Positions 404-57,872 of a stretch of 64,000 nt of DNA are shown piece by piece (position 1 is the first letter of the stretch; every line of letters starts with the position of its first letter). This DNA is from Candidatus Nomurabacteria bacterium (lineage in GTDB: Bacteria > Patescibacteriota > Minisyncoccia > Phycocordibacterales > UBA9973): positions 67,785 to 131,784 of the forward strand of contig CP064958.1 in NCBI GenBank assembly GCA_016699085.1, in the 5' to 3' direction. The notes under the pieces are model-generated. The model was not told where the DNA came from. It ran no database searches and saw only the letters and a program-made list of their open reading frames with translations. The position numbers and the translations under genes are program-made.

Positions 404-466
404 GTGAATAGTTAATAGTGAATAGAAGGTCATAAAAGTAAATAGTGAATAGTGAATAGTGAATAG
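404..466. repeat. Tandem 7-bp repeat array (TGAATAG/TTAATAG/TAAATAG, about 8 units). It lies between the 3' end of the four-helix-bundle gene and the GT4 start codon.
   Basis: Direct reading: 'gtgaatag ttaatag tgaatag...taaatag tgaatag tgaatag tgaatag'. Confidence 0.7.
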
Positions 467-468
467 AG

Positions 469-822
469 CTACTTCTTAGTTGTTTTAATAAGACTAAGCA
501 ACATTTTCTGAATTTCAAATACTAATGATTCAGCTTTCATATATGAAATTTCTGGATACTGTCTTTTTGCAATAATTACTTGGGTTTCAAGTTCTGCAGC
601 CGAAGCAATCGCTATTGATAAAAATCTTCCAAATTCTGTCTGATAATTACGTGACCAACCTTCAGCAATATTTGATGGAATAGAAATCGCTGCACGAAGC
701 ATCTGTGAAGTTAGAGAAAATTGCTCACTTTTAGGAAATTTTTTTGTCATGACATATATTTCATTTACAAGATCAATACCCTTCTGCCAAACTATGAGAT
801 CTTTATAGGATTTTATTTCCAT
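469..822 (-). CDS. Four-helix-bundle protein (PF05635-like, '23S rRNA intervening-sequence protein' family).
   Basis: 117 aa. 'YKDLIVWQKGIDLVNEIY...RAAISIPSNIAEGWSR...GRFLSIAIASAAELETQ' matches the conserved motifs of this family. Confidence 0.8.
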   Translation of the reverse strand: MEIKSYKDLIVWQKGIDLVNEIYVMTKKFPKSEQFSLTSQMLRAAISIPSNIAEGWSRNYQTEFGRFLSIAIASAAELETQVIIAKRQYPEISYMKAESLVFEIQKMLLSLIKTTKK

Positions 823-824
823 AT

Positions 825-856
825 CTATTTACTGTTCACTATTTACTAATTTACTG
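825..856. repeat. 7-bp-periodic array CTATTTA/CTGTTCA/CTATTTA/CTAATTT. It is the reverse complement of the 404-466 array, forming an inverted pair around the four-helix-bundle gene.
   Basis: Direct reading. The array overlaps the GT2 stop codon and ends 3 bp from the four-helix-bundle start codon. Confidence 0.6.
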
Positions 857-1789
857 TCTCTTTGACTTCCTGACTACATACAACGGTCGATTGATAACTT
901 CAGTGTGAATGTTGGCGATATAGAGAGCGATGAGTCCCAAACATGACAGCACAATGCCGATCAAGAATAGCAGGATAACGGCGAGTATGGCGGTACCAGA
1001 GAAATTATAAAAATTTGTAAATATGTAGCGAGACAAAAACATGAAAATACCAAACGGCAAAGAGAAGACGATGATGAGGACTCCGGCATAGCCTGCAAGT
1101 TTGAGTGGAAATAAACTATGCGAAACGAAGCTCTTAATCGCAAGTCCTAAAAGCTTGGAGAAATTGTAGCTCGCAGCACCTGATCGTCGCTCTGGTGCGA
1201 TAAATGGAACTGTATCTCGGCGAAAACCCAGCCAGTCAATGAGGCCTCGAGTAATACGCTCACGCTCAGAGAATTTATTAAACTCATCGATCACGACACG
1301 GTCGATCAGACGGAAGTCAGTCGCATTCGAAAGAATTTCTGTATCAGATATAAGATTTGAAATCGAATAGTAGAGTCTAGAGCCGAGCCGTTTGATGAGA
1401 CCTTCTTTCGTATTGGAACGTCTAATGCCGATCACAATTTCTGCACCAGCTTCCCACTTTGCAATAAATTCTGGAATGAGTTCTGGCGGATGCTGCAAAT
1501 CTGCATCGAGCATGATAACCGCATCCCCTGTCGCTGCATGAATGCCTGCCGTCGTTGCCAATTCTTTGCCGAAATTCCTCGAGAATTCGATCAGTTTGAT
1601 ACGACTATTCGTTACCATGAGCTCTTCGATCGCTTGTACACTACGATCACTACTGCCATCATCAACAAAAATAATCTCACACGTATAGGCTGAGAGTTGA
1701 GTTAGCACCGGTAGTAACGCCGCCATAAGAGGACGAATATTCGCCGCCTCGTTGTACACAGGAATGATAATAGATAGTGATTTATTCAT
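851..1789 (-). CDS. Family-2 glycosyltransferase (polyprenol-phosphate sugar transferase, DPM1/ArnC-like) with C-terminal transmembrane helices.
   Basis: 'IIIPVYNEAANI', 'VDDGSSDRS' and 'DADLQHPPE' (DxD) motifs, plus a hydrophobic C-terminus. Confidence 0.8.
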   Translation of the reverse strand: MNKSLSIIIPVYNEAANIRPLMAALLPVLTQLSAYTCEIIFVDDGSSDRSVQAIEELMVTNSRIKLIEFSRNFGKELATTAGIHAATGDAVIMLDADLQHPPELIPEFIAKWEAGAEIVIGIRRSNTKEGLIKRLGSRLYYSISNLISDTEILSNATDFRLIDRVVIDEFNKFSERERITRGLIDWLGFRRDTVPFIAPERRSGAASYNFSKLLGLAIKSFVSHSLFPLKLAGYAGVLIIVFSLPFGIFMFLSRYIFTNFYNFSGTAILAVILLFLIGIVLSCLGLIALYIANIHTEVINRPLYVVRKSKRQ

Positions 1790-3050
1790 AACGGATATTT
1801 TTTTCTAAAAAGTAGAGGACAATACATGACATGAGTAAAATCGCGCTTGTACCAAGTGACACAAGCACAATCGCGATAATACTAGTATGGAAAATACTGA
1901 TGCCAATAATTTCGGCAAGAGCTAGTATAGATAACGGATAGATGAAGGTTTTGTGATGTGTAGCCAAGAAATACTGAATAAAAACGGTTGCCATAGATGA
2001 GAGTCCCATAGCTCCCGCAAAATAAACCAAGTATGGCGCACCGCCTAGGTATTCGGACCCAAACAGGAGCGATACAATATAGGTCGGAAATGTACCGAAA
2101 AGCACGACAAGAAAGATGCTCGCAAGCCCCACAATAGCAAGTGATAGTGCTAAAAGCTTGCCTGTTTTGCCATCACGAGCAGTGTGCGATGCAGAGGTCA
2201 TCGGGAAAAGCACGACGAGTACTGCCGCTGAACCATAGGTAATAATTTTGCCGAGCACCGAAAGCGCGGCATACTCACCTGCCATAAATGGTTCCAGATA
2301 GTGCTTGGCCAAGAGTGTGTCGACATTCACAAAAATCGCGAGTAGTAATGTCGCTAAAAAGGTAAAGCCGATGTAGTGTCGCTTATCACGAAACACATCA
2401 TACCAATTCGCCTCTGTACTACGCACAACCGCACGTGGCATGCGACGACGCAAAATTAACCAGCCATAGATAAATGCGAGCAAGCTCGCAATGATGAGTG
2501 CACACACAATGCCACCGATCGAAAGGCCTATGAGTACAAAGAGAATTGAAAATGCGAATTTCAAAAGTGCATTGATGACATTACTTATCGAAAGTGCCTT
2601 GAACGCTTGCAGGCCTTGCAAGAAACCATTATTGCTCGCAGTAAAAAATGACAACGGTAGCAATAAACTAAAGATAAGCATCGGCACGAGAGGCACATGC
2701 AAGTACGACGACAACGGCAATGCGAGAATAAGCGTGAGGATAAAGCTCCCAACACCGAGATAATACATCGGCACTCTCGTCGCACGACGAAGCGCACTAA
2801 CCGCATCAGTTTCGCCTTTGGCAATATGATCAGCAGTGTATTTGGATAAGATCATCGAAATCGTACCTCCCGGAACACTGACGATCACTAACAGTGTAAA
2901 CAGGGCGACGAGTTCACCATAGATTTCTGGCGGCAAGAGCCTACCCATGACGAGGTTGAATGCGTAGTTTAAGAAGTTCGCCGCAACCGAGCCAATAAAG
3001 ACAATGGTGCTCGCCTGCAAGAATCGGTTATTGAATAGCGTGCGAAACAT
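1782..3050 (-). CDS. Polysaccharide/oligosaccharide flippase (Wzx-like, MOP superfamily). The true start is probably the Met at 3050, not 3068.
   Basis: About 12 predicted transmembrane helices over the whole length. It overlaps the GT2 gene by 8 nt, consistent with an operon. Confidence 0.55.
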   Translation of the reverse strand: MFRTLFNNRFLQASTIVFIGSVAANFLNYAFNLVMGRLLPPEIYGELVALFTLLVIVSVPGGTISMILSKYTADHIAKGETDAVSALRRATRVPMYYLGVGSFILTLILALPLSSYLHVPLVPMLIFSLLLPLSFFTASNNGFLQGLQAFKALSISNVINALLKFAFSILFVLIGLSIGGIVCALIIASLLAFIYGWLILRRRMPRAVVRSTEANWYDVFRDKRHYIGFTFLATLLLAIFVNVDTLLAKHYLEPFMAGEYAALSVLGKIITYGSAAVLVVLFPMTSASHTARDGKTGKLLALSLAIVGLASIFLVVLFGTFPTYIVSLLFGSEYLGGAPYLVYFAGAMGLSSMATVFIQYFLATHHKTFIYPLSILALAEIIGISIFHTSIIAIVLVSLGTSAILLMSCIVLYFLEKNIRYE

Positions 3051-3080
3051 GTATATATAGTATAGCAAACATTACTTAAT

Positions 3081-3112
3081 GAATAAAAATAGCCGTATGT
3101 ATAGACGGCTAT
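3081..3112 (-). terminator. Rho-independent terminator for the 3121..3699 gene.
   Basis: Stem ATAGCCGT/ACGGCTAT followed by a T-run on the minus strand. Confidence 0.5.
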
Positions 3113-3120
3113 TGAATATA

Positions 3121-3699
3121 TTACATTTCTAAACTTATACAGAACAATCGATACGCCTGGAAATCGTATGAACTTACCGAGCCTTGATGATTTTCATTAA
3201 GGAAATATCTTAATACCCTCTCTCTGTCATCCAAACGTCTAGCTACGTTACTATCTAATTGGACTTCAAACATGATATCAATATAATTTTCCTTTTCACC
3301 GTCATATTTTTTTTGCTTAATATAAATATTTGTATCAAGCTCTTTCTTTCGCAAAAAAATTGGCAGGTCACTCCACTTATTAACTATGTCATCATGCCTT
3401 AGTGCATCATACTCTTTATGCACTCTGGAGATAACCAGCATTGATAGTGGGATCAGATCTTTTTTACCAGTCTGCATATCTTCCAAAATATCCAAAACAT
3501 TTGCCCAAAATATTGGGCCGGATTCAAGATCATCAATATCACGGGGTAATGGATAACGAATGGTACACTCTTCACTTGAAAAACTTAAGGTATTTTCAGC
3601 AAAAGCAATTCCTTTTTGCTCTGCTAAAATCATAAATTGCGTTTGTAGTTCGGTATAGGGTTTTACCTTTAATTCGTGACTTACCTGTTGGTCTACCAT
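3121..3699 (-). CDS. Hypothetical protein (192 aa), cytoplasmic and acidic.
   Basis: Long ORF with no recognisable motifs. Confidence 0.45.
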   Translation of the reverse strand: MVDQQVSHELKVKPYTELQTQFMILAEQKGIAFAENTLSFSSEECTIRYPLPRDIDDLESGPIFWANVLDILEDMQTGKKDLIPLSMLVISRVHKEYDALRHDDIVNKWSDLPIFLRKKELDTNIYIKQKKYDGEKENYIDIMFEVQLDSNVARRLDDRERVLRYFLNENHQGSVSSYDFQAYRLFCISLEM

Positions 3700-3916
3700 G
3701 GGAGAACGTTTTTAATAAAATAAAATATTTAATGAAAAAAGTCAAGGAAAATAAAAATCCGCCCCTACCGTAAATAGGGACGGATACTAACTGTTATCTC
3801 GTTTTTCGGCCCTCAATGCGTCGGCCAGATAACAGTAAAAAACTAAAAGATTAGTAATAGTTTAGTACGAAACAAATTTTTTGTCAAACAATCCTATCGC
3901 CTGCTATACTTGCCCT

Positions 3917-6900
3917 ATGTCGAAACCATTTACTCATCTCCATACCCATTCTCACTACTCACTCCTAGATGGGCTATCGAAGATAGATGATTTGGTCAAC
4001 CGCGCAAAAGAACATGGTATGGAAGCACTCGCACTTACCGATCATGGCAACATGTACGGTGCTATCGAATTCTACAAAGCCTGCAAAAAAGAAAATATCA
4101 AACCTATCATCGGCGTCGAAGCCTATGTCGCCGAGCGAACGAGGTTTGATAAAGATCCTAACATTGATGCCAAACGGTATCATCTAACTTTGCTTGCCCG
4201 AAACGAAACTGGTTACAAAAATCTCATGCGACTCGTCTCGAAAGCTAACATCGAAGGCTACTACTACAAGCCACGCATGGATCATGATCTACTCAAAGAA
4301 CATGCTTCCGGACTTATATGCCTCACAGGATGCCCTGCCAGTCGTTTCATTCACCATGTTAAAAATAATCAGATTGATGAAGCCAGGAAGCTCCTTCATT
4401 TCTACATCGATATATTTGGGAAAGAGCATGTGTTCGTCGAAGTCATGCATCATGATGATGTTGATTGGTATACACCACTGTTGCCTACTATCAAACAAAT
4501 CGCACAAGACCTCGATCTACCGATCGTCGGTACGTGGGATTCGCACTACCTCCACAAAGATGATGCGGAAGCACAAGATACACTCCTAGCAATTAACACT
4601 GGCTCAGATGTGGGAAGTAATAAGATATCAATGAAGTCTGGCGACTATTCATTTATTAGTTCAGACGAAGCCTATAAAATATTCCACGACATGCCCGAAG
4701 CCTGTGCGAATACACAAAAAGTTGTGGATCTCGTTTCTATAGAGCTCTCACTCGGAAACTGGTATTTCCCAAACTACGAAATCCCTGAGGGAACCACGTA
4801 TGACAGCGAACTGTCTAAATTCACCTACCTCGGGATGGAGACTCGCAATATCGAGAAGACACCAGAGCGACTCGAACGCATCGCGTATGAACTCGACGTT
4901 ATCAAGAATAAAGGCTACGCGCCCTACTTCCTCGTCGTTGCCGATCTGTTGAAATTCGCCCGTGAGCACAATATCGTCACCACAACGAGAGGCTCGGCCG
5001 CAGGATCAATGGTCTCGTACCTTAACTACATCACGACGGTTGATCCGATCGAATACAATTTGCCATTTGAAAGATTCTTGAACCCATACCGTCCATCGGC
5101 ACCTGATATCGATATGGATATAGCTGACAACAGACGCGATGAAATGATCGATTATGCCAAATTAAAATATGGCGCAGATAAAGTTGCTCAGATCGGAACA
5201 TTCGGTACCATGATGGCACGTGGTTCAGTGCGTGACGTAGCACGTGCACTCGGCTATCCATATAGCATCGGCGATCGTCTCTCAAAACTCATACCGATGG
5301 GTAGCCAAGGTTTCCCTATGACGATCGATCATGCCATGGAACTCGTACCAGAACTTCAAACAGCGTATGACAACGAGCGTGAGACAAAAGAAATTATTGA
5401 TCTCGCAAAAAAAATGGAAGGCTGTGCACGACATATCTCTGTGCACGCAGCAGGCGTCGTTATCGCACCTTCGGCTATCGAAGATTTTACCCCGATACAG
5501 TTTGACCCCAAAGGCGGCAAAATCATCACACAGTACGACATGTACACGATCGAAGAAGCGGGACTCCTCAAGCTCGACTTTCTCGGTATCAGAAACTTAG
5601 CCATCTTAGGAGATGCCATCGAACGCATCATGAAAATCAGAGGTATAAAGATCGATCTCGACGATCTGCCAAAGCAAGACAAAAAAACATTTGAAATGCT
5701 TGCCCGTGGTGAAACTGTTGGCGTCTTCCAGCTCGGCAATGACGGCATGACAAAAGCCGTCAAGAAACTAGAACCAACGACAATCGATGACTTGAATGTC
5801 ATGGTCGCACTCTATCGTCCAGGACCAATGGCGACGATCGATGAATACATTGCGAGAAAGCATGGCAAGAATAAGACGATTTACTATCATCCGAAAATGG
5901 AAAAGTTTTTGCACAAAAGTTTTGGACTCTTGGTCTATCAAGATGATCTCCTCTACACGGCGATCGAACTCGCTGGCTATGACTGGGAATCAGTTGATAA
6001 ATTCCGCAAAGCAGTCGGTAAAAAAATCCCAGAAGAAATGGCAAAGCAACATACCAAATTCGTCGATGGCTGCCAAAAATATTCTGCCATGTCAAAAAAA
6101 GATGCCGAGAAAATCTGGGAGCTCTTTGAACCATTCCAAGGCTACGGATTCAACAAAGCTCATGCCGCAAGTTACGGCAAAGTCGCCTACCAAACAGCGT
6201 ATTTGAAAGCTAACTTCCCTGCAGAATACATGAGTGCAGTATTGACTGCCGAGTCTGATGACCTCGAGCGAATCGCAGAAGTGATCGCTGAGTGTAAACG
6301 CATGGGCTTTGTTGTACTGCCACCTGATATTAATGAGAGCTTCTCTGACTTTACTGTCGTACTCGATGAACAAGGATCGGTAACAAACACAATTCGCTTC
6401 GGTCTTCGCAGTATTAAAAATTTCGGTGAAGAGATCGGTAAGGCAATTATTGGCGAGCGCAAAGCGCATGGAGCATTTGCATCACTCGTGAATTTCCTCG
6501 ATCGAGTCCATCACAAGAACCTGAACAAGAAATCACTTGAGGCACTCGTCATGTGCGGTGCGATGGATACGCTCGGTGAGCGCGGTACACTCATGCGGAA
6601 CATGGAAGTGTTGCTCGAATACAACAAGGAAAATGAAAAAATGCGTGGACAAGATTCATTGTTCGGAGGACTAACGAGCTATGATGGCGGTAGTCTTGAA
6701 CTAGTTCCCGGTGACACTGCGACACAAGCAGAAAAATTGCTTTGGGAGAAAGAACTGCTCGGTCTCTATGTCTCAGGTCATCCACTCGAACGCTGTCGCG
6801 CACAAATCGAGCAAAGCGGTATGCATATAGGCAAAATTAGAACTGATATTAAAAATGGCATGCCGGTTATTTTGGGCGCGATGATTACTGCTATCAAAAC

Positions 6901-7102: not shown

Positions 7103-7126
7103 CCCGAACCGATTAGGGTTTGGGTT
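7101..7126. terminator. Hairpin terminator between dnaE (+) and the 7137..7472 gene (-). Likely bidirectional.
   Basis: AACCCGAACC-gattag-GGTTTGGGTT, with a T-run on the minus-strand side. Confidence 0.5.
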
Positions 7127-7136
7127 ATATGTTCAG

Positions 7137-7472
7137 TTATTGGAAACTTCCGGAGACCTGAATACTCTCCTGAATTGAGAGGTACATTTGTACTCTACTT
7201 TTTGTATCTGACTGTGAAGTATACTGCTCAACGAACTCTAATCTTTTCCTGAAACGAGCCATCGAACGACTCGAAATAATGAGGTCGAGTAACTCTTCGC
7301 ATAAATCATCAATCTCTTTTTGATTGAGATCTGGTCGACATTCATTTTCATTCTGAATCTTTACCAGATCTCTGATTTCCTGTTTTTTCTGTCTGATTTT
7401 CATTGTAAGTGATGGAAATAAGAAAAAATAAAGCTTCACAGGAAAGTAGATAATCAATGGAAGTTTTTTCAT
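7137..7472 (-). CDS. Hypothetical protein (111 aa).
   Basis: ORF only. Confidence 0.35.
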   Translation of the reverse strand: MKKLPLIIYFPVKLYFFLFPSLTMKIRQKKQEIRDLVKIQNENECRPDLNQKEIDDLCEELLDLIISSRSMARFRKRLEFVEQYTSQSDTKSRVQMYLSIQESIQVSGSFQ

Positions 7473-7546
7473 AACGTATGGGTTTGGTTAAGGAAAATTA
7501 AATAAATTATACGCTATTTTACAGAAAATGCAAGCTACAACTGAAT

Positions 7547-9316
7547 TTGTCATATGGTATTATTGGGCTTATGCCTGAAGAAAAATTAAACCAAATCCGT
7601 CACACCCTTGCCCATCTCTTGGCTGCATCAATACGAACACTCTATCCCAATGCACAAAATTCCATTGGCCCTGCAATAGAAAATGGCTTCTATCAAGATT
7701 TCGATTTGCCTGAGACAATATCTGAAAAAGACTTCCCTGTGATCGAAGCAAAGATGAACGAACTCTTGATGACATGGAAAGAATTCACCAAGCGAGATGT
7801 AACACCTGACGAAGCCAAAAAAGAATTTGCATGGAATAAGTACAAAGTCGAACTCATAGAAGAATTCTCACAAAAAGGCGACCAGCTAACATTCTATACA
7901 GCTGGCGAATTTGTTGATCTCTGTCGCGGCGGCCATGTTGAACATCCACATACTGATATCGTGCCAGGTTCATGGAAGCTCGATCGAGTTGCGGGAGCGT
8001 ATTGGCGTGGCGATGAGAAAAATAAAATGCTTACTCGCATTTATGGACTTGCATTTGAATCAAAAGAAAAACTCGATGGTTATATCGCCATGCAAGAAGA
8101 AGCAAAGAAACGCGACCATCGTAAACTAGGTAAAGAACTCGGATTATTTTTATTCTCTGATCTTGTTGGACCAGGATTGCCATTATGGACACCCAAAGGC
8201 ACACTGTTGCGCGAGCTTCTCAATGACTATGTCTGGAGTCTTCGAAAAAAGTATGGGTACGAAAAAGTAACAATCCCGCACATTACGAAAAAAGAATTGT
8301 ATGAGACCTCTGGGCATTGGGCAAAATATGCTGATGATCTTTTTAAAATTCATACACGGGAAAATAAACTCTTTGCTATGAAGCCCATGAACTGCCCTCA
8401 TCACACGCAAATATTTGATTCTGAACCAAGAAGCTATCGTGATATGCCGCAGCGATATTGCGAAACAACAATGGTATATCGAGATGAACAATCAGGCGAA
8501 CTATCAGGTCTGTCGAGAGTGATATCGATTACCCAAGATGATGCTCACGTTTTTTGCCGTGAAAGCCAGATCGAGGAAGAATCATTAAAGATTTGGGATA
8601 TTATTGAAAAATTCTATGGTGCATTCGGCTTTGAGCTCACACCACGACTATCTCGACATGATCCTGATAATTTTGAAAAATATCTAGGCACAAAAGAAAC
8701 GTGGGAAAAAGCTGAAGGAGCGCTCAAAGATCTCATCGAGAAGAAAAATGCTGTCGCGATAGATGGCAAAGGAGAAGCAGCATTTTATGGACCAAAAATA
8801 GATTTCCTCGGCAAAGATTCACTTGGGCGAGAACACCAAGTGGGTACAATCCAGATAGATTTCGTCCAACCAAAAAACTTCGGTCTCACGTTTACAAATG
8901 AAAAAGGTGAGAAAGAAAATGTCGTCATGATTCACTGTGCAATCATGGGCTCTATCGAGCGATTTATGATGATCATGATCGAACATCTCGGCGGATCATT
9001 CCCAACCTGGCTCTCACCAGTACAAGTCGCAATTATTCCCGTTCGCGAAAATCATATAGAGTATGCAAAGAAAGTTGAAACAGATCTTGAAGAATCCGGC
9101 ATTCGGGCAAAAATGTATGATGCTAATGACAGCCTCGGCAAACGCATCCATGCTGCAAAAGGACAGAAAATCCCGTACGTCATTGTGATCGGTGATAAAG
9201 AAATGTCTTCAGGAAACCTCACCATCGAAAAGCGTGACGGAACAAAAGATGAGCAAACACTTGCAATCTTTATTGAAATGCTTAATGGAGAGGTCAAAAA
9301 CCGTTCATTAAATTAG
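7547..9316 (+). CDS. thrS: Threonyl-tRNA synthetase lacking the N-terminal TGS domain.
   Basis: 'HTLAHLLA' editing-domain His pair, 'RDHRKLGKELGLF', class-II motifs, 'FYGPKIDF', and a C-terminal anticodon-binding domain. Confidence 0.9.
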   Translation: MSYGIIGLMPEEKLNQIRHTLAHLLAASIRTLYPNAQNSIGPAIENGFYQDFDLPETISEKDFPVIEAKMNELLMTWKEFTKRDVTPDEAKKEFAWNKYKVELIEEFSQKGDQLTFYTAGEFVDLCRGGHVEHPHTDIVPGSWKLDRVAGAYWRGDEKNKMLTRIYGLAFESKEKLDGYIAMQEEAKKRDHRKLGKELGLFLFSDLVGPGLPLWTPKGTLLRELLNDYVWSLRKKYGYEKVTIPHITKKELYETSGHWAKYADDLFKIHTRENKLFAMKPMNCPHHTQIFDSEPRSYRDMPQRYCETTMVYRDEQSGELSGLSRVISITQDDAHVFCRESQIEEESLKIWDIIEKFYGAFGFELTPRLSRHDPDNFEKYLGTKETWEKAEGALKDLIEKKNAVAIDGKGEAAFYGPKIDFLGKDSLGREHQVGTIQIDFVQPKNFGLTFTNEKGEKENVVMIHCAIMGSIERFMMIMIEHLGGSFPTWLSPVQVAIIPVRENHIEYAKKVETDLEESGIRAKMYDANDSLGKRIHAAKGQKIPYVIVIGDKEMSSGNLTIEKRDGTKDEQTLAIFIEMLNGEVKNRSLN

Positions 9317-9337
9317 GAATGTGCTCGTCACACTTTT

Positions 9338-9372
9338 CTATTTACTAATTACTAGTCACTATTTACTACCCC
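9338..9372. repeat. Heptad array CTATTTA/CTAATTA/CTAGTCA/CTATTTA/CTACCCC directly abutting the ATG at 9373.
   Basis: Direct reading. Confidence 0.6.
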
Positions 9373-9567
9373 ATGTTTGAAAATAATGTATACAATTTGA
9401 TGATGCAAGTAACCGTCGAGCACGTATCGCTCTGGCGTATAAAAGATGACTACATGAAAGATGCCAAGAAATCTCCTGAGGTTAAGAAGTTCTGGATGAA
9501 AATGATTCATGACAAAGAATCTCAAATCAAAGAACTCAAGGCACTCATCAAGAAAGAAATGAAATAA
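9373..9567 (+). CDS. Small hypothetical protein (64 aa).
   Basis: ORF preceded by the heptad array and followed by a strong terminator. Confidence 0.4.
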   Translation: MFENNVYNLMMQVTVEHVSLWRIKDDYMKDAKKSPEVKKFWMKMIHDKESQIKELKALIKKEMK

Positions 9568-9570
9568 TAA

Positions 9571-9596
9571 AAACCCCTGCTATGCAGGGGTTTTTG
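9571..9596. terminator. Rho-independent terminator, bidirectional.
   Basis: CCCCTGC-tat-GCAGGGG followed by TTTTT. It is flanked by convergent genes. Confidence 0.75.
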
Positions 9597-16432: not shown

Positions 16433-16768
16433 AACGGAAAGTATAGCAAAAACAGGCCATTTTTGCGAAGATGTGATAAAATAACTCTATGTCAAAAACG
16501 ACGATCTATATCATTATTGCTTGTCTTATATTACTCATTGGGGGCTACTACATAGGCTGGCTCGACAATGGACCGCGAGAGCAAGAAGAAATAATAGACA
16601 TCAATAATCTCCCAAGCCGCCTTGATCCATAGAAATATATCCACAGAATGTAATAAATTAAAAATTTCGAAACGAACACTGTTTGAGCATTTCTATGGTA
16701 AAAACTGGCATGCGAGTTTGTGAGATGAGAAATTTTTAATTTATGAAATTTAAAAATTAAATATATTT

Positions 16769-22469: not shown

Positions 22470-23705
22470 CTAGAGTTCTTCGGTTGCTGAAGTCACAGGT
22501 GTTTCCACAGCATTATCTAATAATTGTGCTGCGACTGATTCGAGGAGCATAGCCTCATGTGCGACAAATGCACTTATTGAATCAAATGATCCTACGTTTA
22601 TAGTGCCTTCTTTCAGCTCTGCAACAGAATCTCGGAGACTATCGCTTGTTTTGTATGTTGGACTTTTCTTCATTAAAAACTTATACCATGGTGCTCGCAC
22701 TTCGACACCATTGTTGGTATTGTCGACAATAATCCGCTGGATCACATACGTCTTTGCAAAACCGAGGAACTTAGCGTTGGCTGCATAGGATATTTCGGTC
22801 ATATCTTTATTCATGACAATCTTTTTGATTCGATCATTGTCTCTCATTAATGTTTCAGCATAAAGTTTGAGATCTTCAAGTGTTGCTACACTTGTGGCAC
22901 GATCAATTCGGACAGTTTCCAAAGTTGTAGGCCCGAGTTCACTTCGGTTAATAGTGAGAGAAAGATCAGCTGCTTCTGGCGCTTGGTCACCTTGGGCTAC
23001 GTAACTTTTATTTTCATCCCAGTTAGTCTTAAAACTAGCGAATGATGCTTGGATGTTTTGGAAGTGACTATCAGCACTAACTCCAGGTAGTCCACGCAAA
23101 CACGAGAGTACTCGTGCGTTGAACGCAATTAAATTCTCAACTCTATTCATATCTGGACCTGCAGATTTACCGAGTTCATGGATAACTTCAACTAATACTG
23201 AACGGAAAATGGTTTTTAGACGGCTTTGGGCAACATCACTATTGCCTATAAGATCAAGTTCACTAGACATAGCCATTTGCAAGGCACGTTCCTTGGTGTA
23301 CAAATCTTTCTGCACTTGTGACACTTCGTCGGCTGGAGTTGCTAGAACACTATAGCTATCGACATTCCAAGCAAAACTAGATCGGTCGGCCTCACTAGCT
23401 CCCAAAAATGTACTATCGATCGCACTACAAAATGATTCAGTGTCAGTATCAGGAATACTTTTAGTACCGATATCACTAACGAGATTATCAACGATATAGG
23501 TAAGGTATCCAGAAGTCTTTGGGAGTGCAGTTGTTGTCGGAGCCTTCAATCCATCTGATGAAATTTCTGTTTCTGGTAATGCCGCAAAGATACTCGATGC
23601 GTAAAATAAGCTGATAATACTAAGCGTACTGACGAGCATAGAAGCTCTAGTGTGTGTTTTCATCCCGGTAGTATACCACCTGTAACCTAACTGTAAAATT
23701 GACAA
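22470..23705 (-). CDS. Secreted hypothetical protein (411 aa).
   Basis: N-terminal signal peptide 'ISLFYASSIFA'. Confidence 0.45.
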   Translation of the reverse strand: MSILQLGYRWYTTGMKTHTRASMLVSTLSIISLFYASSIFAALPETEISSDGLKAPTTTALPKTSGYLTYIVDNLVSDIGTKSIPDTDTESFCSAIDSTFLGASEADRSSFAWNVDSYSVLATPADEVSQVQKDLYTKERALQMAMSSELDLIGNSDVAQSRLKTIFRSVLVEVIHELGKSAGPDMNRVENLIAFNARVLSCLRGLPGVSADSHFQNIQASFASFKTNWDENKSYVAQGDQAPEAADLSLTINRSELGPTTLETVRIDRATSVATLEDLKLYAETLMRDNDRIKKIVMNKDMTEISYAANAKFLGFAKTYVIQRIIVDNTNNGVEVRAPWYKFLMKKSPTYKTSDSLRDSVAELKEGTINVGSFDSISAFVAHEAMLLESVAAQLLDNAVETPVTSATEEL

Positions 23706-24335: not shown

Positions 24336-24396
24336 TCCTCTACTATAGCAAAAACGGTCTTAAAAGACCGTTTATTATTTTCAATAAATTTGATAT

Positions 24397-24639: not shown

Positions 24640-24750
24640 GAGTACAGATTTTTCAAACTATACTACGTACTACTAGAAACCACAATCATAAATCAAAAAG
24701 CAAAGATCGCTCTCTGCTTTTCGTCTGTTACTATTTATTAGTTACAATTT

Positions 24751-25197
24751 TTACATCCATGCACCCAATATCGCACCGAAAATCAAAAGTGACACGAGCA
24801 TATAGCCAGCATTGATAAAGAATAATCTCCATGCCATTTTGCGAGGGCGATTGCTCCACATGGCACCACTAGCAGATAGTGGCATTGCAAATCCTAGCCA
24901 CACCCAAAACGCTGTTGAAACACCTGACATAGCTCCAGTTGTGCCAAAGTATGCCATACCCATCACAATAATATGAGAGAGGACATATAACTCGATCAAC
25001 AAGAGCACAAACTGCGTGAGATATAATTTCCACATACCTTTCTGAATCTCTTTCATTTTCTCTGGTGGCATGTTCATATCCATACCAGAAGCTTCCATGA
25101 ATGCTACTCCAAAAAGGATTTTTGAATGCCACAGGAAACCTATAAACATTCCTACAAGTCCACACACTAATATCGCTACATAATTTACTGGGATCAT
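24751..25197 (-). CDS. Membrane protein (148 aa).
   Basis: 4 hydrophobic helices. The start codon is abutted by a heptad array. Confidence 0.45.
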   Translation of the reverse strand: MIPVNYVAILVCGLVGMFIGFLWHSKILFGVAFMEASGMDMNMPPEKMKEIQKGMWKLYLTQFVLLLIELYVLSHIIVMGMAYFGTTGAMSGVSTAFWVWLGFAMPLSASGAMWSNRPRKMAWRLFFINAGYMLVSLLIFGAILGAWM

Positions 25198-25203
25198 ATA
25201 TAT

Positions 25204-25231
25204 AGTAAACAGTGAGTAGTAAATAGTATAC
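25204..25231. repeat. Heptad array TAGTAAA/CAGTGAG/TAGTAAA/TAGTATA, 6 bp upstream of the 24751..25197 start codon.
   Basis: Direct reading. Confidence 0.5.
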
Positions 25232-25276
25232 GACTATTTAAAACTAACTACTTATAAATTAAACTAATAATTTCGA

Positions 25277-35003: not shown

Positions 35004-35089
35004 ATAAAAAGTATACCACAATAAAGCTCCAAAAAAGTTTGTTTGACATAGATATATATATACTTTAGTATGAGGCAAACGTTATTCAC

Positions 35090-51477: not shown

Positions 51478-51481
51478 ATAA

Positions 51482-52195: not shown

Positions 52196-52268
52196 AGATT
52201 CGTAAATTTATTATATGTTATATTTTATCTTTTGCAATCACGAAAATGAGTCAGAAAAATTTCCTGTG

Positions 52269-53150
52269 CTATTTATTGAGCAACGCTTTCACGCGATCCT
52301 CCATCGGCGGATGTGTCATCCAGAGTTTTGCAAAACTGCTGGTCTTACCTTTTGGATCTGCAACGTAGAGATGAGCTATAGCGTTGGATTGACGTGCCAT
52401 GGGTGTACTGTACTGACTGATCTTGGTCAGTGCATTTGCCAAACCTTCAGGATAGCGTGTCAAAAGTGCACCGGATGCATCTGCTAAATATTCACGTTTC
52501 CTTGATATCGCAAGCTGTATGAGCGTAGCAAAAATCGGTGCAAGGATTGCGAGCACAATACCAATAATCATAAAAAAGTTTCCCCCACCTTCCCTATCTC
52601 TACCACGACCGCCAAATAGTTGTGCCCGCAAAAACATATCCGCAACGATAGAAATAAATCCCGCTAGTACAACAGCAACCGTCGCGACCAAAATATCACG
52701 ATTGCCAACATGTGAGAGCTCATGCGCAATCACCCCTTCTAACTCACTTCGATCTAGTATTGCCAAGATGCCTGTCGTTACCGCTATTGCTGCATGCTCT
52801 TTATTGCGACCAGTAGCAAATGCATTGGGCGCAGGATCGTTGATGACATAGAGCTTGGGTTTCGGCAGGCCGGCAGTAATAGAGAGATTCTCAACAATAC
52901 TATGAAGCTCTCGGTATACGCTTGGATCAGCTGGTTTAGCACCTGCAAGTTTAATCGCAATCTTATCTGAGTACCAATAGCCAATAATATTCATGACAAT
53001 ACTAAAGAAAAAGAAAGCGTAGAGGATCGTAGGATTCTGGTAGACTTGTGCAAACACAAAACCAATACCGACCACGAGCACAAGGAAAACACTCATGAGG
53101 AGCCAGGTCTTCGTGACATTTTTGGATTGTTGGGTATAGAGCGTTGCCAT
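52269..53150 (-). CDS. htpX: Zinc metalloprotease HtpX (peptidase M48).
   Basis: N-terminal transmembrane helices and 'HELSHVGNRD' (HExxH). Confidence 0.85.
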   Translation of the reverse strand: MATLYTQQSKNVTKTWLLMSVFLVLVVGIGFVFAQVYQNPTILYAFFFFSIVMNIIGYWYSDKIAIKLAGAKPADPSVYRELHSIVENLSITAGLPKPKLYVINDPAPNAFATGRNKEHAAIAVTTGILAILDRSELEGVIAHELSHVGNRDILVATVAVVLAGFISIVADMFLRAQLFGGRGRDREGGGNFFMIIGIVLAILAPIFATLIQLAISRKREYLADASGALLTRYPEGLANALTKISQYSTPMARQSNAIAHLYVADPKGKTSSFAKLWMTHPPMEDRVKALLNK

Positions 53151-53192
53151 GTAGGTATTTTAGCAAATTTTAGACACATTTGCGCTAAAAAT

Positions 53193-53221
53193 AAAACTAC
53201 CCTTTTTGGGGGTAGTTTTTT
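53193..53221 (-). terminator. Terminator for the 53220..53423 gene.
   Basis: ACTACCC-tttttgg-GGGTAGT with flanking T/A runs. Confidence 0.5.
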
Positions 53222-53423
53222 ACTGTTTAGCAGCGAGTATAAATAGCTTCTGCCGGAATTCATCGGGAGAAAGCTTTTCTTGTCTAAATTCATCTTTAAG
53301 TGTTTGGTACTCTGGAGTATCCTTTGCTTTACGAACAAGACTCCAAATTGACAATTCACCGCTAGATTTTTTTAAAACTTGAAGCTTCTGCTTTTTTTCG
53401 GTGTTATTATTTGTCGTTTCCAT
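53220..53423 (-). CDS. Small hypothetical protein (67 aa).
   Basis: ORF only. Confidence 0.3.
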   Translation of the reverse strand: METTNNNTEKKQKLQVLKKSSGELSIWSLVRKAKDTPEYQTLKDEFRQEKLSPDEFRQKLFILAAKQ

Positions 53424-53442
53424 TTGATTTTATAATAGCACT

Positions 53443-54624
53443 CTAAGCAACAGCTGTCAATATATGACGCTCCTTTAAGGATATACGATTCTTGTATGCC
53501 TTAGCAAAAGTGATATTTTTATCTACGATTACTGAACTAATTTTATGTGCCCTAGCAATATTACCTAGAGGGATTTTTTCATCAATCGTGTCTTGTGATA
53601 ACTCATGTTTCCCTGCCCAAATTTCAAGTAGCTTTAAATGTTCATCGTATTTAGGATCATCGGCTATATTAAACAATTGATGTGCATCACGGGATCGCAC
53701 TAATGTAGCTAACTCATCAATTGAAAAATCAGCTTCAACCTCATGTAAATAGTCCAAGATGAGCGTGTCTGTAATTTCTATTTCTTTTAATTTTTCTATA
53801 TTTTGGTCCAAAAAATATACCCCGAAGTAGCCATATTTTTCATGAAGTGCATTGAGTAATTGTATTCTTTTTTCGATAATTGCTTCCTGGTTTGCTTCAA
53901 TAAATGCTTCATTAGCATTTTTAAATGCATGAGCTTGGCTGTATATATCCAAAGAATCAATATATTCTTGATGAGCATATTCGCTTGCGTGACGTTCATT
54001 TGGATCGATTACCCCACGTTTTACCTGAACCAATATTACTTCTAATATTTCATTTGAGAAAGGTTCAGAAATTATCTGAACAAGATCTATTTTATGTTTT
54101 ACATCGAGAGTATTATTTGTTCCTATAATACTATCCATCCCTTTATATTGCTCATTCCCATTAAATGATGAATTCATTTCCTCAACTACTTCTGCAACCT
54201 TCTCAACACCGAGCATCATCCCTTCTATATATTGCTGGACGTTTCTTGTGGCTTCGGGTTCTATTTCATCTTTTTTATTTTTATTCTTTTCTTCAACAAA
54301 ATATCTTGTATAGTCTGAAACAAAACGAGGAAGATTATTAAGCTTATTATTCACCACCAGCTCAAGTATACGATTTTGGAATACAACCTCTGGCAGATAC
54401 AAAGTTCGACGGTCTGGGTCATCATTTTTTGTAAATTTTCGAATAGTTTCTATCGTTCTTGCATCTAGACCATTCACATGAATTGCAGCAATTTTTCTAA
54501 AAAATGCTTCTTGTTCTTCAATCTTTAGTCCTGGCACAATGCTTAAATCATTTATATTTTCTTGTCGATATTCAGTCTGACTGTTTTTTTTCTTATCTTT
54601 CCCAACAAATAGTGAAAATTCCAT
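53443..54624 (-). CDS. Hypothetical cytoplasmic protein (393 aa).
   Basis: ORF only. Confidence 0.4.
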   Translation of the reverse strand: MEFSLFVGKDKKKNSQTEYRQENINDLSIVPGLKIEEQEAFFRKIAAIHVNGLDARTIETIRKFTKNDDPDRRTLYLPEVVFQNRILELVVNNKLNNLPRFVSDYTRYFVEEKNKNKKDEIEPEATRNVQQYIEGMMLGVEKVAEVVEEMNSSFNGNEQYKGMDSIIGTNNTLDVKHKIDLVQIISEPFSNEILEVILVQVKRGVIDPNERHASEYAHQEYIDSLDIYSQAHAFKNANEAFIEANQEAIIEKRIQLLNALHEKYGYFGVYFLDQNIEKLKEIEITDTLILDYLHEVEADFSIDELATLVRSRDAHQLFNIADDPKYDEHLKLLEIWAGKHELSQDTIDEKIPLGNIARAHKISSVIVDKNITFAKAYKNRISLKERHILTAVA

Positions 54625-54662
54625 ATCTATATTATACCATACTAATAAGTATTTAGCAAAAT

Positions 54663-55160
54663 CTACTGAAATACAACTGGAATTTTGATTGACTTGTCAT
54701 GCTCAGGTAATCCGGATGCATTGTCAGCTCGAATCACAATATAGCCAGGACCAGGTGCAATGCCAATAAGGTCAAGGGCGGAAGTAAACGTTACAGGTCC
54801 TATTGTCATCCATTCTGTTATCGCCATCCCATGTGTTTGTTTTAGGATATTCCCTGCTGTGTCTTCTATCGTAATGCCAATATTGCCTTCAAAGAAATAA
54901 GCACCTTGCACTGTCGCTAATAGGATCACCTCCCCACCAATACTGTCGCCTGGTTTAATAGAGCTAAACACGAGATCATCTTTATTTCCCGAAACCTCAA
55001 GTGGTACGGGTTGATAATCAGGTTCATCAGTATTACCTATGGTCTGGGTCTCACCATCTGGCCCCACAGGAGCTCGCACGGGAACATTTTTGACTATAAA
55101 CAAGAGCGCCAGGAGTAGGATAATAACAACTACAAGAATAATCAGATTCTTTGTCTTCAT
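54663..55160 (-). CDS. Secreted or membrane-anchored hypothetical protein (165 aa).
   Basis: N-terminal transmembrane segment. Confidence 0.4.
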   Translation of the reverse strand: MKTKNLIILVVVIILLLALLFIVKNVPVRAPVGPDGETQTIGNTDEPDYQPVPLEVSGNKDDLVFSSIKPGDSIGGEVILLATVQGAYFFEGNIGITIEDTAGNILKQTHGMAITEWMTIGPVTFTSALDLIGIAPGPGYIVIRADNASGLPEHDKSIKIPVVFQ

Positions 55161-55162
55161 CT

Positions 55163-55750
55163 TTATTGGAATTTAACTGAAGCTAAATCGATAAATGCAG
55201 CCGTTGTTGCATTAACTTTGTTCTTGACTGTTATAACAATTGCGCCACCAGAAGTATTTTGGAGGATGAATGTTGTACTACCAGGCTGTACTGCTGAGTA
55301 ACATTTTGTATATAAATTATTACCAAAGACGGCAGGACCATCCACTGTAACAGCACCCGGAACTGCACAAGCTGTCTCTGGTGTAATGCCTTTTGCGTAG
55401 CTAATTACATCGACTTCATCGAGACCACCAGAATTGTAACCACGGACTGCGTACGTACCCTTTGGACTTGCTTGTTCAACAACAGTTGAAGCGAGTGGAT
55501 ACTGGAATGAAAAATCAGCCGACATAAATGTCTGAGTTACATTTGTAGGAGTAGGTGTTGTATTATTTGTATTCTCGTTATTTTCTGTATTTTGTGGCAA
55601 AACACTATTGTTATCATCAATAACAGGAGAGCCTATATATCCATCATCACTTTTACGACCAAAATCACCGATGGCAAATATACCAATGGCAACAATAGCC
55701 AAAATAACGATTATGAGTAATGCTTTACCTGTAGGTTGTTTATTTTCCAT
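55163..55750 (-). CDS. Secreted or membrane-anchored hypothetical protein (195 aa).
   Basis: N-terminal transmembrane segment and an Asn/Thr-rich linker. Confidence 0.4.
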   Translation of the reverse strand: MENKQPTGKALLIIVILAIVAIGIFAIGDFGRKSDDGYIGSPVIDDNNSVLPQNTENNENTNNTTPTPTNVTQTFMSADFSFQYPLASTVVEQASPKGTYAVRGYNSGGLDEVDVISYAKGITPETACAVPGAVTVDGPAVFGNNLYTKCYSAVQPGSTTFILQNTSGGAIVITVKNKVNATTAAFIDLASVKFQ

Positions 55751-55903
55751 ATAATTTTAAATTATGACTAATGACTTAAGTATACGCCTATTTAGTGTGA
55801 TTGTCGCCTGTTTACAATATCTCACAATAGATAGCTACGATTAATTACAATTCAAATTATTTCGGAATGTTTTTAATTAAATAATTATTTTTCATAAAGT
55901 AAG

Positions 55904-56650
55904 TTACTTCTTAATAAATCCTTCGAGAGCTTTCAATGTTTCTACAGGCACCATGTAGACGACCGTATTTGATTGGTCAGATGACATATCATTGATCGAC
56001 TGAAGGGTGCGCAAATGAAGCGCCCCAGGAGCAGACGCTAGCATTTCAGCAGCTTTGGCCATATTGGCAGACGCTGCTAACTCTCCTTCAGATGTGATAA
56101 TCACTGCTCGCTTCTCGCGTTCAGCTTCAGCTTGTTTGCCGATCGTGCGTTCCATTTCAAGCGGCAAGCTCACGTCTTTGAGTTCAACATTTTGGACTTT
56201 GAGCCCCCAAGCATCAGTCTCTTTATCCACTGTCTCACGTATTCGATCCGCGATCTGATCTCGTTCGGCCAAAAGCTCATCGAGTGTTACTGACCCGACA
56301 ATGTTACGCATTGTAGTCTGTGCATACTGTGAAATCGCATGCTGGAAATTTTCAACTTCGATCACCGCTTTGGCTGCGTCGCTCACTTTGTAGTAAATAA
56401 CAGCATTTACTTTGACAGATACATTATCCCGAGTGATGGCATTCTGATCTGGCACATCAACAGCTTTGATACGAATATCAACTTTTTGAAATGATTGAAA
56501 TATCGGAATGATGAGGCGCCACCCAGGATTCATGAGCCCACTATAGCGACCCAAAGTAAAGCGCACGCCGCGCTGGTATTGATTGATCTGCTTGATACTA
56601 GCGATCAAAATAAAGAAGACAACAAGTAAAAGGATGTAGATAAGTGTCAT
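55904..56650 (-). CDS. SPFH/band-7 (stomatin/prohibitin-like) membrane protein.
   Basis: N-terminal transmembrane segment plus an SPFH domain with a C-terminal coiled coil ('EAEREKRA'). Confidence 0.8.
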   Translation of the reverse strand: MTLIYILLLVVFFILIASIKQINQYQRGVRFTLGRYSGLMNPGWRLIIPIFQSFQKVDIRIKAVDVPDQNAITRDNVSVKVNAVIYYKVSDAAKAVIEVENFQHAISQYAQTTMRNIVGSVTLDELLAERDQIADRIRETVDKETDAWGLKVQNVELKDVSLPLEMERTIGKQAEAEREKRAVIITSEGELAASANMAKAAEMLASAPGALHLRTLQSINDMSSDQSNTVVYMVPVETLKALEGFIKK

Positions 56651-56690
56651 AAAATTTAATTAATTTCTACTAGAGTTACATTTCTAAATA

Positions 56691-57251
56691 CTACGAAGAT
56701 GCAATATCTATCGTCAAAATCTTGGCTTCACCATATGTTTTGCCAGCATCACTTTCTCCAACTAGACGATAATTATACGTTGTGCCTGCCGTAATACCAT
56801 AGATTATCTCACTAATATTGCCTTCAGCGGTATTTTGAGTTTTGCGCGGTGTTGACTGGATGGCGCCTTTAATACCATTACTATCAACAGTCCAGTATTC
56901 GAACCAACTCACCACATATGCACCGTTTGCTTTAAATGTGCCATTAACGATCACTTTCGCAGGAGGTGTATCAGTACATGGTGCTGCACCTGCTACCGGT
57001 AGCCCACAACCATAGCCGCTATAGGTGTATGACAGTGTAGTAATAGTTGGTTTCTTTACTTGGGAAGTCGGTGCAGTAGGATTTTGAGTGCCTGTAGTAT
57101 CTTCTGTTGTATTTACAATTTCTGCTGGGACTGTCGCATTAACATTGTCAACTATATTTTTAGATTTACACATAACCCCAATACTTATCCCAATAAGCAG
57201 AATAAATACGCCTAATATCCCAACAATAATTTTCTGTTTAGTGTCTGTCAT
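56691..57251 (-). CDS. Membrane-anchored extracytoplasmic hypothetical protein (186 aa).
   Basis: N-terminal transmembrane segment. Confidence 0.4.
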   Translation of the reverse strand: MTDTKQKIIVGILGVFILLIGISIGVMCKSKNIVDNVNATVPAEIVNTTEDTTGTQNPTAPTSQVKKPTITTLSYTYSGYGCGLPVAGAAPCTDTPPAKVIVNGTFKANGAYVVSWFEYWTVDSNGIKGAIQSTPRKTQNTAEGNISEIIYGITAGTTYNYRLVGESDAGKTYGEAKILTIDIASS

Positions 57252-57286
57252 ATAAAATAGATGTTTTAATTAATAAAAAATAATTT

Positions 57287-57844
57287 TTAAAATTTCACTT
57301 CCACCGTCTGCTGTGCAACATCGTTATCAGGCAAATCAAAGAATTCCATTTTCTTGAATGAAAACATGTTGGCAACAATATTACTTGGCACAGATTCAAT
57401 CTTGATATTGAGATCTCGGACATTAGTATTATAAAATCTCCGAGCGGCTTGAATTTTGTTTTCAGTATCAGAGAGCTCACGCTGAAGTTCAAGGAAGTTT
57501 ACATTAGCCTTGAGATCTGGATACGCTTCGGCAATACCAAAGAGTCCGGTCACCGCACCAGCAAGCATTGCTTCGCCTTTAGCGTGTTCTCCAACAGTTT
57601 TAGCGCCCATCGCAGCAGCGCGAGCTTGAGTGACTTTTTCAAATGCACTGGATTCGTGGGCAGCATAACCTTTAACCGTGCTCACGAGGTTAGGGATAAG
57701 ATCATAGCGGCGCTTGAGTTGAACTTCGATATCTGCCCAAGCTTCTTTAGTACGATTGCGTAATGTAACAAAACTGTTGTACATGACAACCAAACTCACA
57801 ACAAGTAGTGCAATGATTATTAATATAATAATTCCTGTAGACAT
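57287..57844 (-). CDS. LemA-family protein. The start is probably the Met at 57844.
   Basis: 'LVVMYNSFVTLRNRTKEAWADIEVQLKRRYDLIPNLV' LemA signature. Confidence 0.8.
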   Translation of the reverse strand: MSTGIIILIIIALLVVSLVVMYNSFVTLRNRTKEAWADIEVQLKRRYDLIPNLVSTVKGYAAHESSAFEKVTQARAAAMGAKTVGEHAKGEAMLAGAVTGLFGIAEAYPDLKANVNFLELQRELSDTENKIQAARRFYNTNVRDLNIKIESVPSNIVANMFSFKKMEFFDLPDNDVAQQTVEVKF

Positions 57845-57872
57845 AGTAGTAGTAAAAAGTGAATAGTAAATT
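57845..57872. repeat. Heptad array TAGTAGT/AGTAAAA/AGTGAAT/AGTAAAT directly abutting the LemA start codon.
   Basis: Direct reading. Confidence 0.55.

Follow-up and report, generated by a model that had tools for sequence, protein, structure and literature searches.

The 23S rRNA intervening sequence (IVS) of Coxiella carries an open reading frame (ORF), S23p, with two to three GACAGAT heptamers directly upstream of its start; the heptamers lie inside a 28-bp terminal stem that is cut by RNase III, and their copy number is strain-dependent (PMC4990558). Tandem heptanucleotide repeats have also been reported in Calothrix, Xanthomonas, Beggiatoaceae and Nostoc, with neither a function nor a partner protein assigned to them (PMC4679880, PMC4692102, 10.1101/2022.06.06.494920). 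The TAACTGA repeats of marine Beggiatoaceae, cyanobacteria and Bacteroidetes consist of two to six tandem heptamers, mostly intergenic and ~1 nt before start codons that lack a Shine-Dalgarno (SD) sequence (MacGregor 2015, PMC4679880). The GGGAATC repeats of Xanthomonas and the cyanobacterial STRR are likewise intergenic tandem heptanucleotides (PMC4692102), as are the Nostoc heptamers, which are found within 30 nt of start codons and for which a binding protein has been postulated (10.1101/2022.06.06.494920). Many heptamers of cyanobacteria, Nostoc and Xanthomonas form convergent inverted pairs, 70 of them in X. campestris pv. campestris (PMC4692102; 10.1101/2022.06.06.494920). Here we analyzed a 64,000-nt stretch of a Candidatus Nomurabacteria bacterium genome (contig CP064958.1; hereafter, the window), in which arrays of 7-nt units (heptads) of the TAGTRAA/TTYACTA type abut start codons. 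We consider it probable that these arrays are copies of one heptanucleotide-repeat element, which forms the inverted arms of cassettes around IVS-protein genes and also occurs as orphan right arms.

A preliminary description of the window had listed five TAGTRAA/TTYACTA arrays, and we recovered all five to within a few bases. It was also right that each of them abuts an ATG and that four read CTATTYA toward the downstream ATG, the inverted one being 823-850, with five AG-phased heptads ending at the ATG of a four-helix-bundle (4HB) gene. A scan of the window for three consecutive TAGTRAA heptads, requiring at least 17 of 21 matches, hit only the five loci and a borderline site at 24727-24747, and 30 dinucleotide-type shuffles of the window each contained 0-2 such heptad windows, usually 0. 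These shuffles, together with the ordered heptad variants common to the loci, rule out chance or low complexity as the origin of the arrays. Tandem Repeats Finder called a period of 7 at 395-466 and 9334-9368, and no known RNA family in Rfam overlapped the arrays in the window.

Two of the arrays, 823-870 and 427-468, are the inverted arms bracketing the 4HB gene at 469-822. The preliminary description missed that these two belong to one PF05635 cassette and are not independent leaders; the single array that it placed at 404-466 does contain repeats but is not one unit, since it comprises the arm 427-468, the pairing partner of 823-870, and a separate copy at 393-425. The features around the cassette are as follows.

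823..870, minus strand: left (5') arm of the cassette, sense-strand TAG-type heptads GACAGTAAA TTAGTAAA TAGTGAA CAGTAAA TAGAT, up to the 4HB ATG at 820-822.
469..822, minus strand: 4HB gene, 117 aa, of the 23S rRNA intervening-sequence protein family.
427..468, minus strand: right (3') arm of the cassette, sense-strand CTA-type heptads CTCTATTCA CTATTCA CTATTCA CTATTTA CTTTTATGACCTTC.
393..425, minus strand: second right-arm copy, CTATTCA CTATTAA CTATTCA CTCTTTA CTACT, up to the GT4 ATG at 390-392.

The 4HB protein matched PF05635 ("23S rRNA intervening-sequence protein") at 2.2e-34 and TIGR02436 ("four helix bundle protein") at 7.6e-35, with 119 bits against a cut-off of 24. Its relatives in the PDB, 2GSC and 2RLD, have five chains in each single entry, and a look-up of the exact protein sequence gave no record. 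PADLOC gave no hit at the locus, and only four-helix-bundle families match the gene, with no match to a nuclease or transposase; we know of no catalytic domain in the protein. The family is related to Avd, the accessory protein of diversity-generating retroelements. As a candidate for the window gene, such a retroelement was rejected, because the protein scored 27 bits against the Avd equivalog NF033474 (cut-off 80) and the adjacent genes encode glycosyltransferases.

The cassette is a co-directional insertion that separates the GT2 stop from the GT4 start, and bases 851-870 of its left arm double as the final codons and stop of GT2. When the region 385-870 was folded on the gene strand, 823-870 was predicted to pair with 427-468 in both the minimum free energy (MFE) and the centroid structures. 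The predicted energy of the arm duplex is −34.5 kcal/mol (z = −5.5), and the best partner of the left arm among 82 right arms tested was its own; the right arm folded alone has an MFE of 0 kcal/mol. In a related-strain contig, L001, whose flanks are ~93% identical, the GT2 stop and the GT4 ATG are 1 nt apart, with no 4HB gene, no array and no second right-arm copy. Therefore, the ~460-bp segment of the window is an insertion/deletion polymorphism, and strains differ in whether they carry the cassette. L001 carries another 4HB gene, 39% identical to that of the window, between the ThrRS gene and a 64-aa ORF (orf64), and its arms are inverted arrays of a different heptad, AGTATGA ... TCATACT. 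This site is dimorphic among the strains: L001, L002 and L206 have the cassette with AGTATGA/TCATACT arms, L207 and L208 have an orphan array, and the window itself carries just the orphan array 9334-9372.

The remaining arrays of the window are orphans, located as follows.

9334..9372, plus strand: orphan right-arm copy, from after the ThrRS stop (9314-9316) to the ATG of the 64-aa ORF at 9373.
25198..25227, minus strand: orphan right-arm copy, ACTATTTACTACTCACTGTTTACTATATAT, up to the DUF1761 ATG at 25195-25197.
25225-25230: TATACT box, 27 nt before the DUF1761 ATG.
25233..25253, minus strand: vestigial TAG-type left arm, AAGTAGTTAGTTTTAAATAGT, pairing with 25198-25227 over a 5-nt loop.
57845..57873, minus strand: orphan right-arm copy, CAATTTA CTATTCA CTTTTTA CTACTACT, up to the LemA ATG at 57842-57844.
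57893..57901, minus strand: extended −10 box, TGCTATACT, predicted at 48 nt before the LemA ATG.
24727..24747, no strand assigned: possible degenerate sixth copy just 3' of the DUF1761 stop, borderline at 17 of 21 matches.

The five right-arm copies of the window share the ordered core CTATTYA-CTAWTWA-CTANTCA-CTNTTTA-CTA (alignment A1). They are therefore one ~30-nt sequence that was copied, rather than products of independent slippage, and the alignment shows the orphan arrays to be homologous, at the level of their sequence, to the cassette right arm. To this extent, the dispersed small repeat family offered in the preliminary description as one reading of the arrays is supported. The site at 25198-25253 is an ORF-less imperfect hairpin, predicted to have an 8-bp perfect stem and an imperfect extension, with an energy that is not significant alone (z = −0.26). 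Between the cassette right arm and the second copy, a short non-repeat piece at 426-437 (minus strand ttttATGaccttc) has its own ATG; counting this internal ATG, all five right-arm copies are followed by an ATG within 0-7 nt. At the start codons, ATGTC (LemA), ATGT (orf64) and TATG (GT4) are candidate target-site duplications, which are too short to tell from chance.

The orphan arrays are stable among related strains. The array 25198-25227 is identical in L003, and the LemA array 57845-57873 is identical in L004 and L005. No copy-number change was found among the few strains available, the arrays being identical in L003, L004, L005 and L208 and of the same length in L207, so that a phase-variable simple sequence repeat was rejected within this small sample. 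In L207, a diverged strain, 2 of 56 positions are changed in the spacer that holds the orphan array, compared with 10 of 55 in the coding sequence beside it, a difference that hints at constraint or recent conversion. Homologues of LemA bear Paceibacterota and Patescibacteria names, which makes it probable that the window comes from the Candidate Phyla Radiation. The LemA array is also kept at the orthologous position in three related Paceibacteria-like species (L209, L212 and L214), where a CTA-type array of varying heptad number separates the ATG from a TGnTATACT box. In L214, this LemA leader array is interrupted at L214:9915-9980 by a ~64-nt GC-rich element, cgcccgaacccagcccgag...ctcgtccttcagtcgggcagg, which resembles a small hairpin or a miniature inverted-repeat transposable element (MITE).

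We then scanned the clade (140 kb, comprising the window, L001, L209, L212 and L214) for at least three exact CTA triplets at period 7. This yielded 13 arrays versus 0.45 expected, none of them from L001. Eight of the 13 end 4-13 nt before a same-strand ATG, and one more is the copy 393-425, which continues as degenerate heptads to the GT4 ATG. Thus, arrays in the clade run up to the 5' end of the next gene, with a strong bias both in where they lie and in which way they face. Enrichment before start codons, which the preliminary description had named as the check on its reading, therefore holds within the clade but fails for this heptad in a wide sample of metagenomes, where 5 of 86 arrays in the forward and 3 of 86 in the reverse orientation lie within 10 nt of a start codon, with no bias. 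A universal association of the heptad with start codons is rejected by this sample, though it is true within the clade.

To examine the generality of the cassette, 80 genomic loci encoding relatives of the window 4HB protein were gathered from Doudnabacteria, Saccharibacteria, Flavobacteriales, Cytophagales, Chloroflexi, Planctomycetota, Zixibacteria, Actinomycetota and others; statistics were calculated on 82 4HB loci, with 167 ORFs from the same loci as the control set and 70 nt as the scored upstream region. By eye, nearly all of the gathered loci have the inverted-array architecture. At least three in-phase TAG triplets at period 7 precede the gene in 51% of the 82 loci, compared with 1.2% of the control ORFs, and at least three in-phase CTA triplets follow it in 44%, compared with 0%. 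A motif-free lag analysis gave the same picture: trinucleotide self-matches at lag 7 came to 571 upstream and to 653 downstream, whereas the other lags (3-12) gave 60-170, and the top lag-7 words were TAG upstream (87 pairs vs 2.5 at neighboring lags) and CTA downstream (86 vs 6.2). Cognate arms pair at −27.4 kcal/mol versus −19.4 for the left arm with the right arms of other genes, and 70% of the cognate pairs have z below −2. The 4HB genes lie within operons: in 52 of 77 loci, both neighbors are co-directional and no more than 120 nt away; the median flanking gaps in the 77 loci are 36.5 and 41 nt, and the spacers are therefore essentially only the arms. Taken together, inverted heptad arms around TIGR02436/PF05635 genes are general across bacterial phyla.

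One orthologous 4HB site in Bacteroidota, between sdhA/frdA and sdhB/frdB, accounts for 42 loci, or half of the sample, but the TAG/CTA statistics are unchanged in the 41 loci outside it. At this site, the cassettes lie between the flavoprotein and iron-sulfur genes of succinate dehydrogenase/fumarate reductase, and their heptads vary by genus (L015, L018-L020, L024, L026, L028-L031, L034, L037 and 30 more; e.g. L029:2980-3357).

How the cassette may work can be outlined by analogy. It would be transcribed with its host operon, and its arms would pair into a ~45-bp stem, which, by homology with the Coxiella 23S IVS, may be cut by RNase III. This cut would free the 4HB message, and the downstream gene would keep a short leader. 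Right arms that are orphans would persist as harmless or useful leaders, as they are G-free and have neither start codons nor stable structure, and leaders of this kind would suit a genome that does without SD sequences and is largely leaderless. In favor of this outline, the 23S rRNA of the related locus L214 has an insertion of 102 nt that forms a heptad hairpin containing G·U pairs (z = −7.5). The arrays are best seen as a variant of both ORF-bearing IVS elements and start-codon-proximal heptanucleotide repeats, and the locus suggests that these are one system. The site of the 102-nt insertion is a helix loop near model position 1765; the same 23S rRNA has a second heptad hairpin, and that of L209 has one too (L214:372-450, L214:1636-1730 and L209:520-610), with the heptads AGTTACG/TAATTCG and AATTACG/AATTAAG. 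The 23S gene of L214 also carries further insertions of 144 and 215 nt.

Several observations weigh against this account of the arrays as cassette arms and their orphans. In the metagenome sample, a 4HB gene adjoins only 3 of the first 80 loci with the heptad and was not hit in the other 40, and none is present in the related loci L209-L215, so that the notion that all TAGTRAA arrays adjoin 4HB genes was rejected. Orphans therefore far outnumber cassettes, and it could be the arrays that are primary, with the cassette as secondary; for comparison, MITEs outnumber their parent transposons. In the clade scan, two of the 13 arrays stop 5 nt short of a tRNA gene, and another two are found at the ends of converging genes. 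Because their heptads differ, the two forms of the ThrRS/orf64 site are not simple derivatives of one another. An inverted-repeat score of at least 15 was reached in only 33% of the cassettes, and in the 56 alignable cassettes the arm mismatches were 43 G·U, 62 A·C and 167 transversions. Since G·U does not exceed A·C, selection for a sense-strand RNA stem is not supported, and the arm complementarity could instead come from a common origin or from inter-arm conversion. Finally, no RNase III signature was found in the window, 64 kb being too little to be informative.

Many of the metagenome heptad loci are ORF-less inverted pairs or lie beside arrays of other heptads. In L092, L126, L136, L143 and L164, TAGTGAA-type arrays are often next to long TAACTCT, CAGTTAT/CAGTCAT, TAATCAC and GGATTAA arrays, making it evident that several heptad families stand side by side in some organisms.

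The strongest competitor of the cassette-arm reading, which we regard as possible though less probable, is that the arrays are SD-independent translation leaders. A G-free, unstructured track without start codons would let ribosomes load or slide to the first AUG; this could involve ribosomal protein S1 or 70S scanning after termination, and the link to 4HB genes would be secondary, with cassettes inserting into host leaders or mimicking them. SD-like cores occur at 4 of 60 window genes versus 3.4 expected by chance, and the genome thus appears not to use SD sequences. The preliminary description had stressed that no SD sequence intervenes between array and start, which is true but, in a window without an SD signal as a whole, does not distinguish the array sites. 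An extended −10 box, TGnTATA[CAG]T, lies 6-8 nt before the ATG of 8 of 61 window genes, a box-to-ATG geometry that suggests widespread leaderless mRNAs; example sites for the box and SD analyses are 3051-3068, 3899-3916, 16433-16450, 23664-23680, 24336-24352, 35004-35020 and 54625-54640. Upstream of DUF1761 and LemA, TGnTATACT-type boxes lie 27 and 48 nt from the ATG, respectively, and the arrays of these two genes are therefore predicted to be transcribed as parts of 5' leaders.

In favor of leaders, the orphan arrays are G-free (G fraction ~0), which leaves them without ATG, GTG or TTG codons and without stable structure, and the mean predicted MFE of array-preceded starts (−40 to +18) is −2.0 kcal/mol versus −5.3 for other genes. 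Four orphan arrays point at the ATG downstream of them and stop 0-5 nt short of it, and 9 of the 13 clade arrays likewise lead up to an ATG. Moreover, different species retain the LemA and SecF arrays at orthologous sites, the L207 spacer is more conserved than its flanking coding sequence, and similar proposals were made for the TAACTGA repeats (PMC4679880) and the Nostoc heptamers (10.1101/2022.06.06.494920). However, a translation enhancer would have no role at the two arrays that precede tRNA genes, and others lie at convergent gene ends. Most window genes have no such array, and the SecF array of L209 and L214 is replaced in the window by just a 12-nt gap. Only 15 of the 82 cassettes have G-poor right arms, and the lack of start-codon bias in the metagenome sample also counts against a leader function.

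In LemA segment 57845-57892, minus strand, an ATG follows the TGCTATACT box by 4 nt, and transcription starting there would open a 22-codon leaderless upstream ORF that crosses the array and, in another frame, overlaps the start of LemA; this ORF is not conserved in L209 or L212. The segment looks inserted, with ATGTC repeated at both ends.

A second alternative, which we hold to be rather unlikely, is that the heptads are binding sites of a ring-shaped pentameric 4HB protein, each subunit contacting one UAG at 7-nt spacing in single-stranded RNA or DNA, after the manner of HutP and TRAP. Binding to the left arm beside its own AUG would make the 4HB protein autoregulatory, and orphans would be trans targets or decoys. 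What recommends this idea is the repeat unit. Across phyla it is T-A-G-N-N-A-W (WTNNCTA on the other strand; TAGTRAA/TTYACTA in the window), with TAG and the A at position 6 conserved while positions 4-5 drift with genome composition. Lag-7 pairs of stop triplets are 87 for TAG, 20 for TAA and 2 for TGA, which weakens the explanation of TAG as any stop codon placed in three frames; the preference for TAG and the conserved A6, which a stem does not need either, point to recognition of the sequence itself and not just to a stem or a three-frame stop. The commonest number of heptads per arm, 4-5, would agree with the five chains in 2GSC and 2RLD. Furthermore, Avd, to which the family is related, serves diversity-generating retroelements, which bind nucleic acids (PMC10053308), and a heptamer-binding protein was postulated in both PMC4679880 and 10.1101/2022.06.06.494920. 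On the other hand, orphan arrays on mRNAs carry CUA, not UAG, the length of the arrays varies from 2 to 11 heptads, and most arrays are in sequence without a nearby 4HB gene.

It is improbable that the arrays are neutral simple sequence repeats that arose by local replication slippage in AT-rich spacers, perhaps seeded by the TATACT −10 box beside leaderless starts. Heptameric simple sequence repeats are over-represented in bacteria (PMC4692102), TTTACT is similar to TATACT, and in three of four cases the upstream TATACT is in the heptad register of the TTYACT units, at 27, 48 and 55 nt from the ATG (6+7n), but the TATACT of the L209 LemA array, at 56 nt, is out of register. Against slippage, a common ordered heptad series recurs at five loci and its tail at other genes in related species, which indicates copying and not independent slippage, and neither the constant copy number among strains nor the conservation of the array above the flanking coding sequence is what slippage predicts.

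Equally doubtful is the view of the arrays as promoter modules of leaderless transcripts, with the last unit TTTACT in the −10 position 6 nt before the ATG: TTTACT does precede the ATG at 9373 (5 nt), at 25197 and 57844 (6 nt) and at the L209, L212 and L214 sites, a perfect TATAAT, 8 nt ahead of the tRNA, closes a tRNA-adjacent array, and the right arm of the L001 cassette has TATACT twice and CATACT 7 nt before the ATG, but TTTACT lacks the essential A at −11 and a TG extension, canonical TGnTATACT boxes lie upstream of the DUF1761 and LemA arrays and of the LemA orthologues, and a consensus scan gave no promoter within the arrays, so that sigma-70 promoters were rejected. The two tRNA-adjacent arrays, L212:10321-10351 and L214:13821-13851, read CTATTCC CTATAAC CTACCAA CTATAAT CTA and end 5 nt before the tRNA, the TATAAT being in the last unit.

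The "23S rRNA IVS protein" family is abundant and no less unexplained than the heptanucleotide repeats, and this locus and the 82-locus comparison tie the two together: from bacteria of the Candidate Phyla Radiation (CPR) to Bacteroidota, the 4HB gene typically lies within operons, with inverted TAGNNAW arrays on its two sides. Our literature search, which left most subscription journals uncovered, found no paper linking TIGR02436 genes outside rRNA to flanking heptad arrays. A speculative extension, to which we give a low probability, is that the TIGR02436/PF05635 proteins would be the binding partners of bacterial heptanucleotide repeats, with a pentameric ring reading UAG/TAG every 7 nt; the gene and its arrays would then form a mobile IVS-like module in rRNA and mRNA operons, and the orphans a dispersed network at gene 5' ends. 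There is also a practical point, which the preliminary description had raised and the LemA gene bears out: because the sense strand of the orphan arrays has no stops in any frame, ORF calls are over-extended, and the mechanical LemA ORF (57287..57910) begins at a TTG and reads MILCYTYNVVWSSIYYSLFTTTM... Gene callers will thus over-extend N-termini at such arrays in SD-less genomes.

Among the known systems, the closest is the 23S rRNA IVS of Coxiella burnetii and Leptospira (PMC4990558). The protein family is the same (S23p = PF05635/TIGR02436), the ORF is enclosed by terminal inverted repeats that form a stem, here a predicted one, tandem heptamers stand directly 5' of the ORF start, and the insertion is selfish-looking and strain-variable. 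The window cassette differs in its host, which is a protein-coding operon (GT2-GT4; elsewhere ThrRS-orf64 and the Bacteroidota sdhA-sdhB) and not helix 25 or 45 of the 23S rRNA; Rfam found no rRNA in the window. It also differs in that whole heptad arrays with a TAG core make up the arms and that single arms occur as orphans before other genes. With the TAACTGA repeats, the arrays share at least two tandem 7-nt units, a mostly intergenic position near SD-less start codons and occurrence at many unrelated genes. The unit, TTYACTA, is different, and in BOGUAY (Orange Guaymas "Maribeggiatoa") the stop-containing strand faces the gene, whereas in the window orphans the complementary stop-free, G-free strand does; S23 and four-helix proteins are not mentioned in PMC4679880. 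The STRR, Nostoc and Xanthomonas units are G-rich and have no TAG core, and G-quadruplexes were proposed for them, which are impossible in the G-free arrays of the window.

Other comparisons concern the arrangement rather than the sequence. HutP recognizes UAG-N4 repeats, with a UAG every 7 nt in single-stranded RNA wrapped round a protein ring, and TRAP binds GAG/UAG repeats as ring-bound RNA at sites that can overlap start regions. The 4HB fold is unrelated to both, and both strands and orientations of the array occur here. In REP/REPIN systems, a small gene (RAYT) lies between inverted copies of a short repeat, and orphan or hairpin copies are dispersed in the same genome. The window likewise has a gene between inverted repeats and dispersed orphans of the same repeat, but RAYTs are HUH nucleases, and REPs are palindromes, not heptad arrays.

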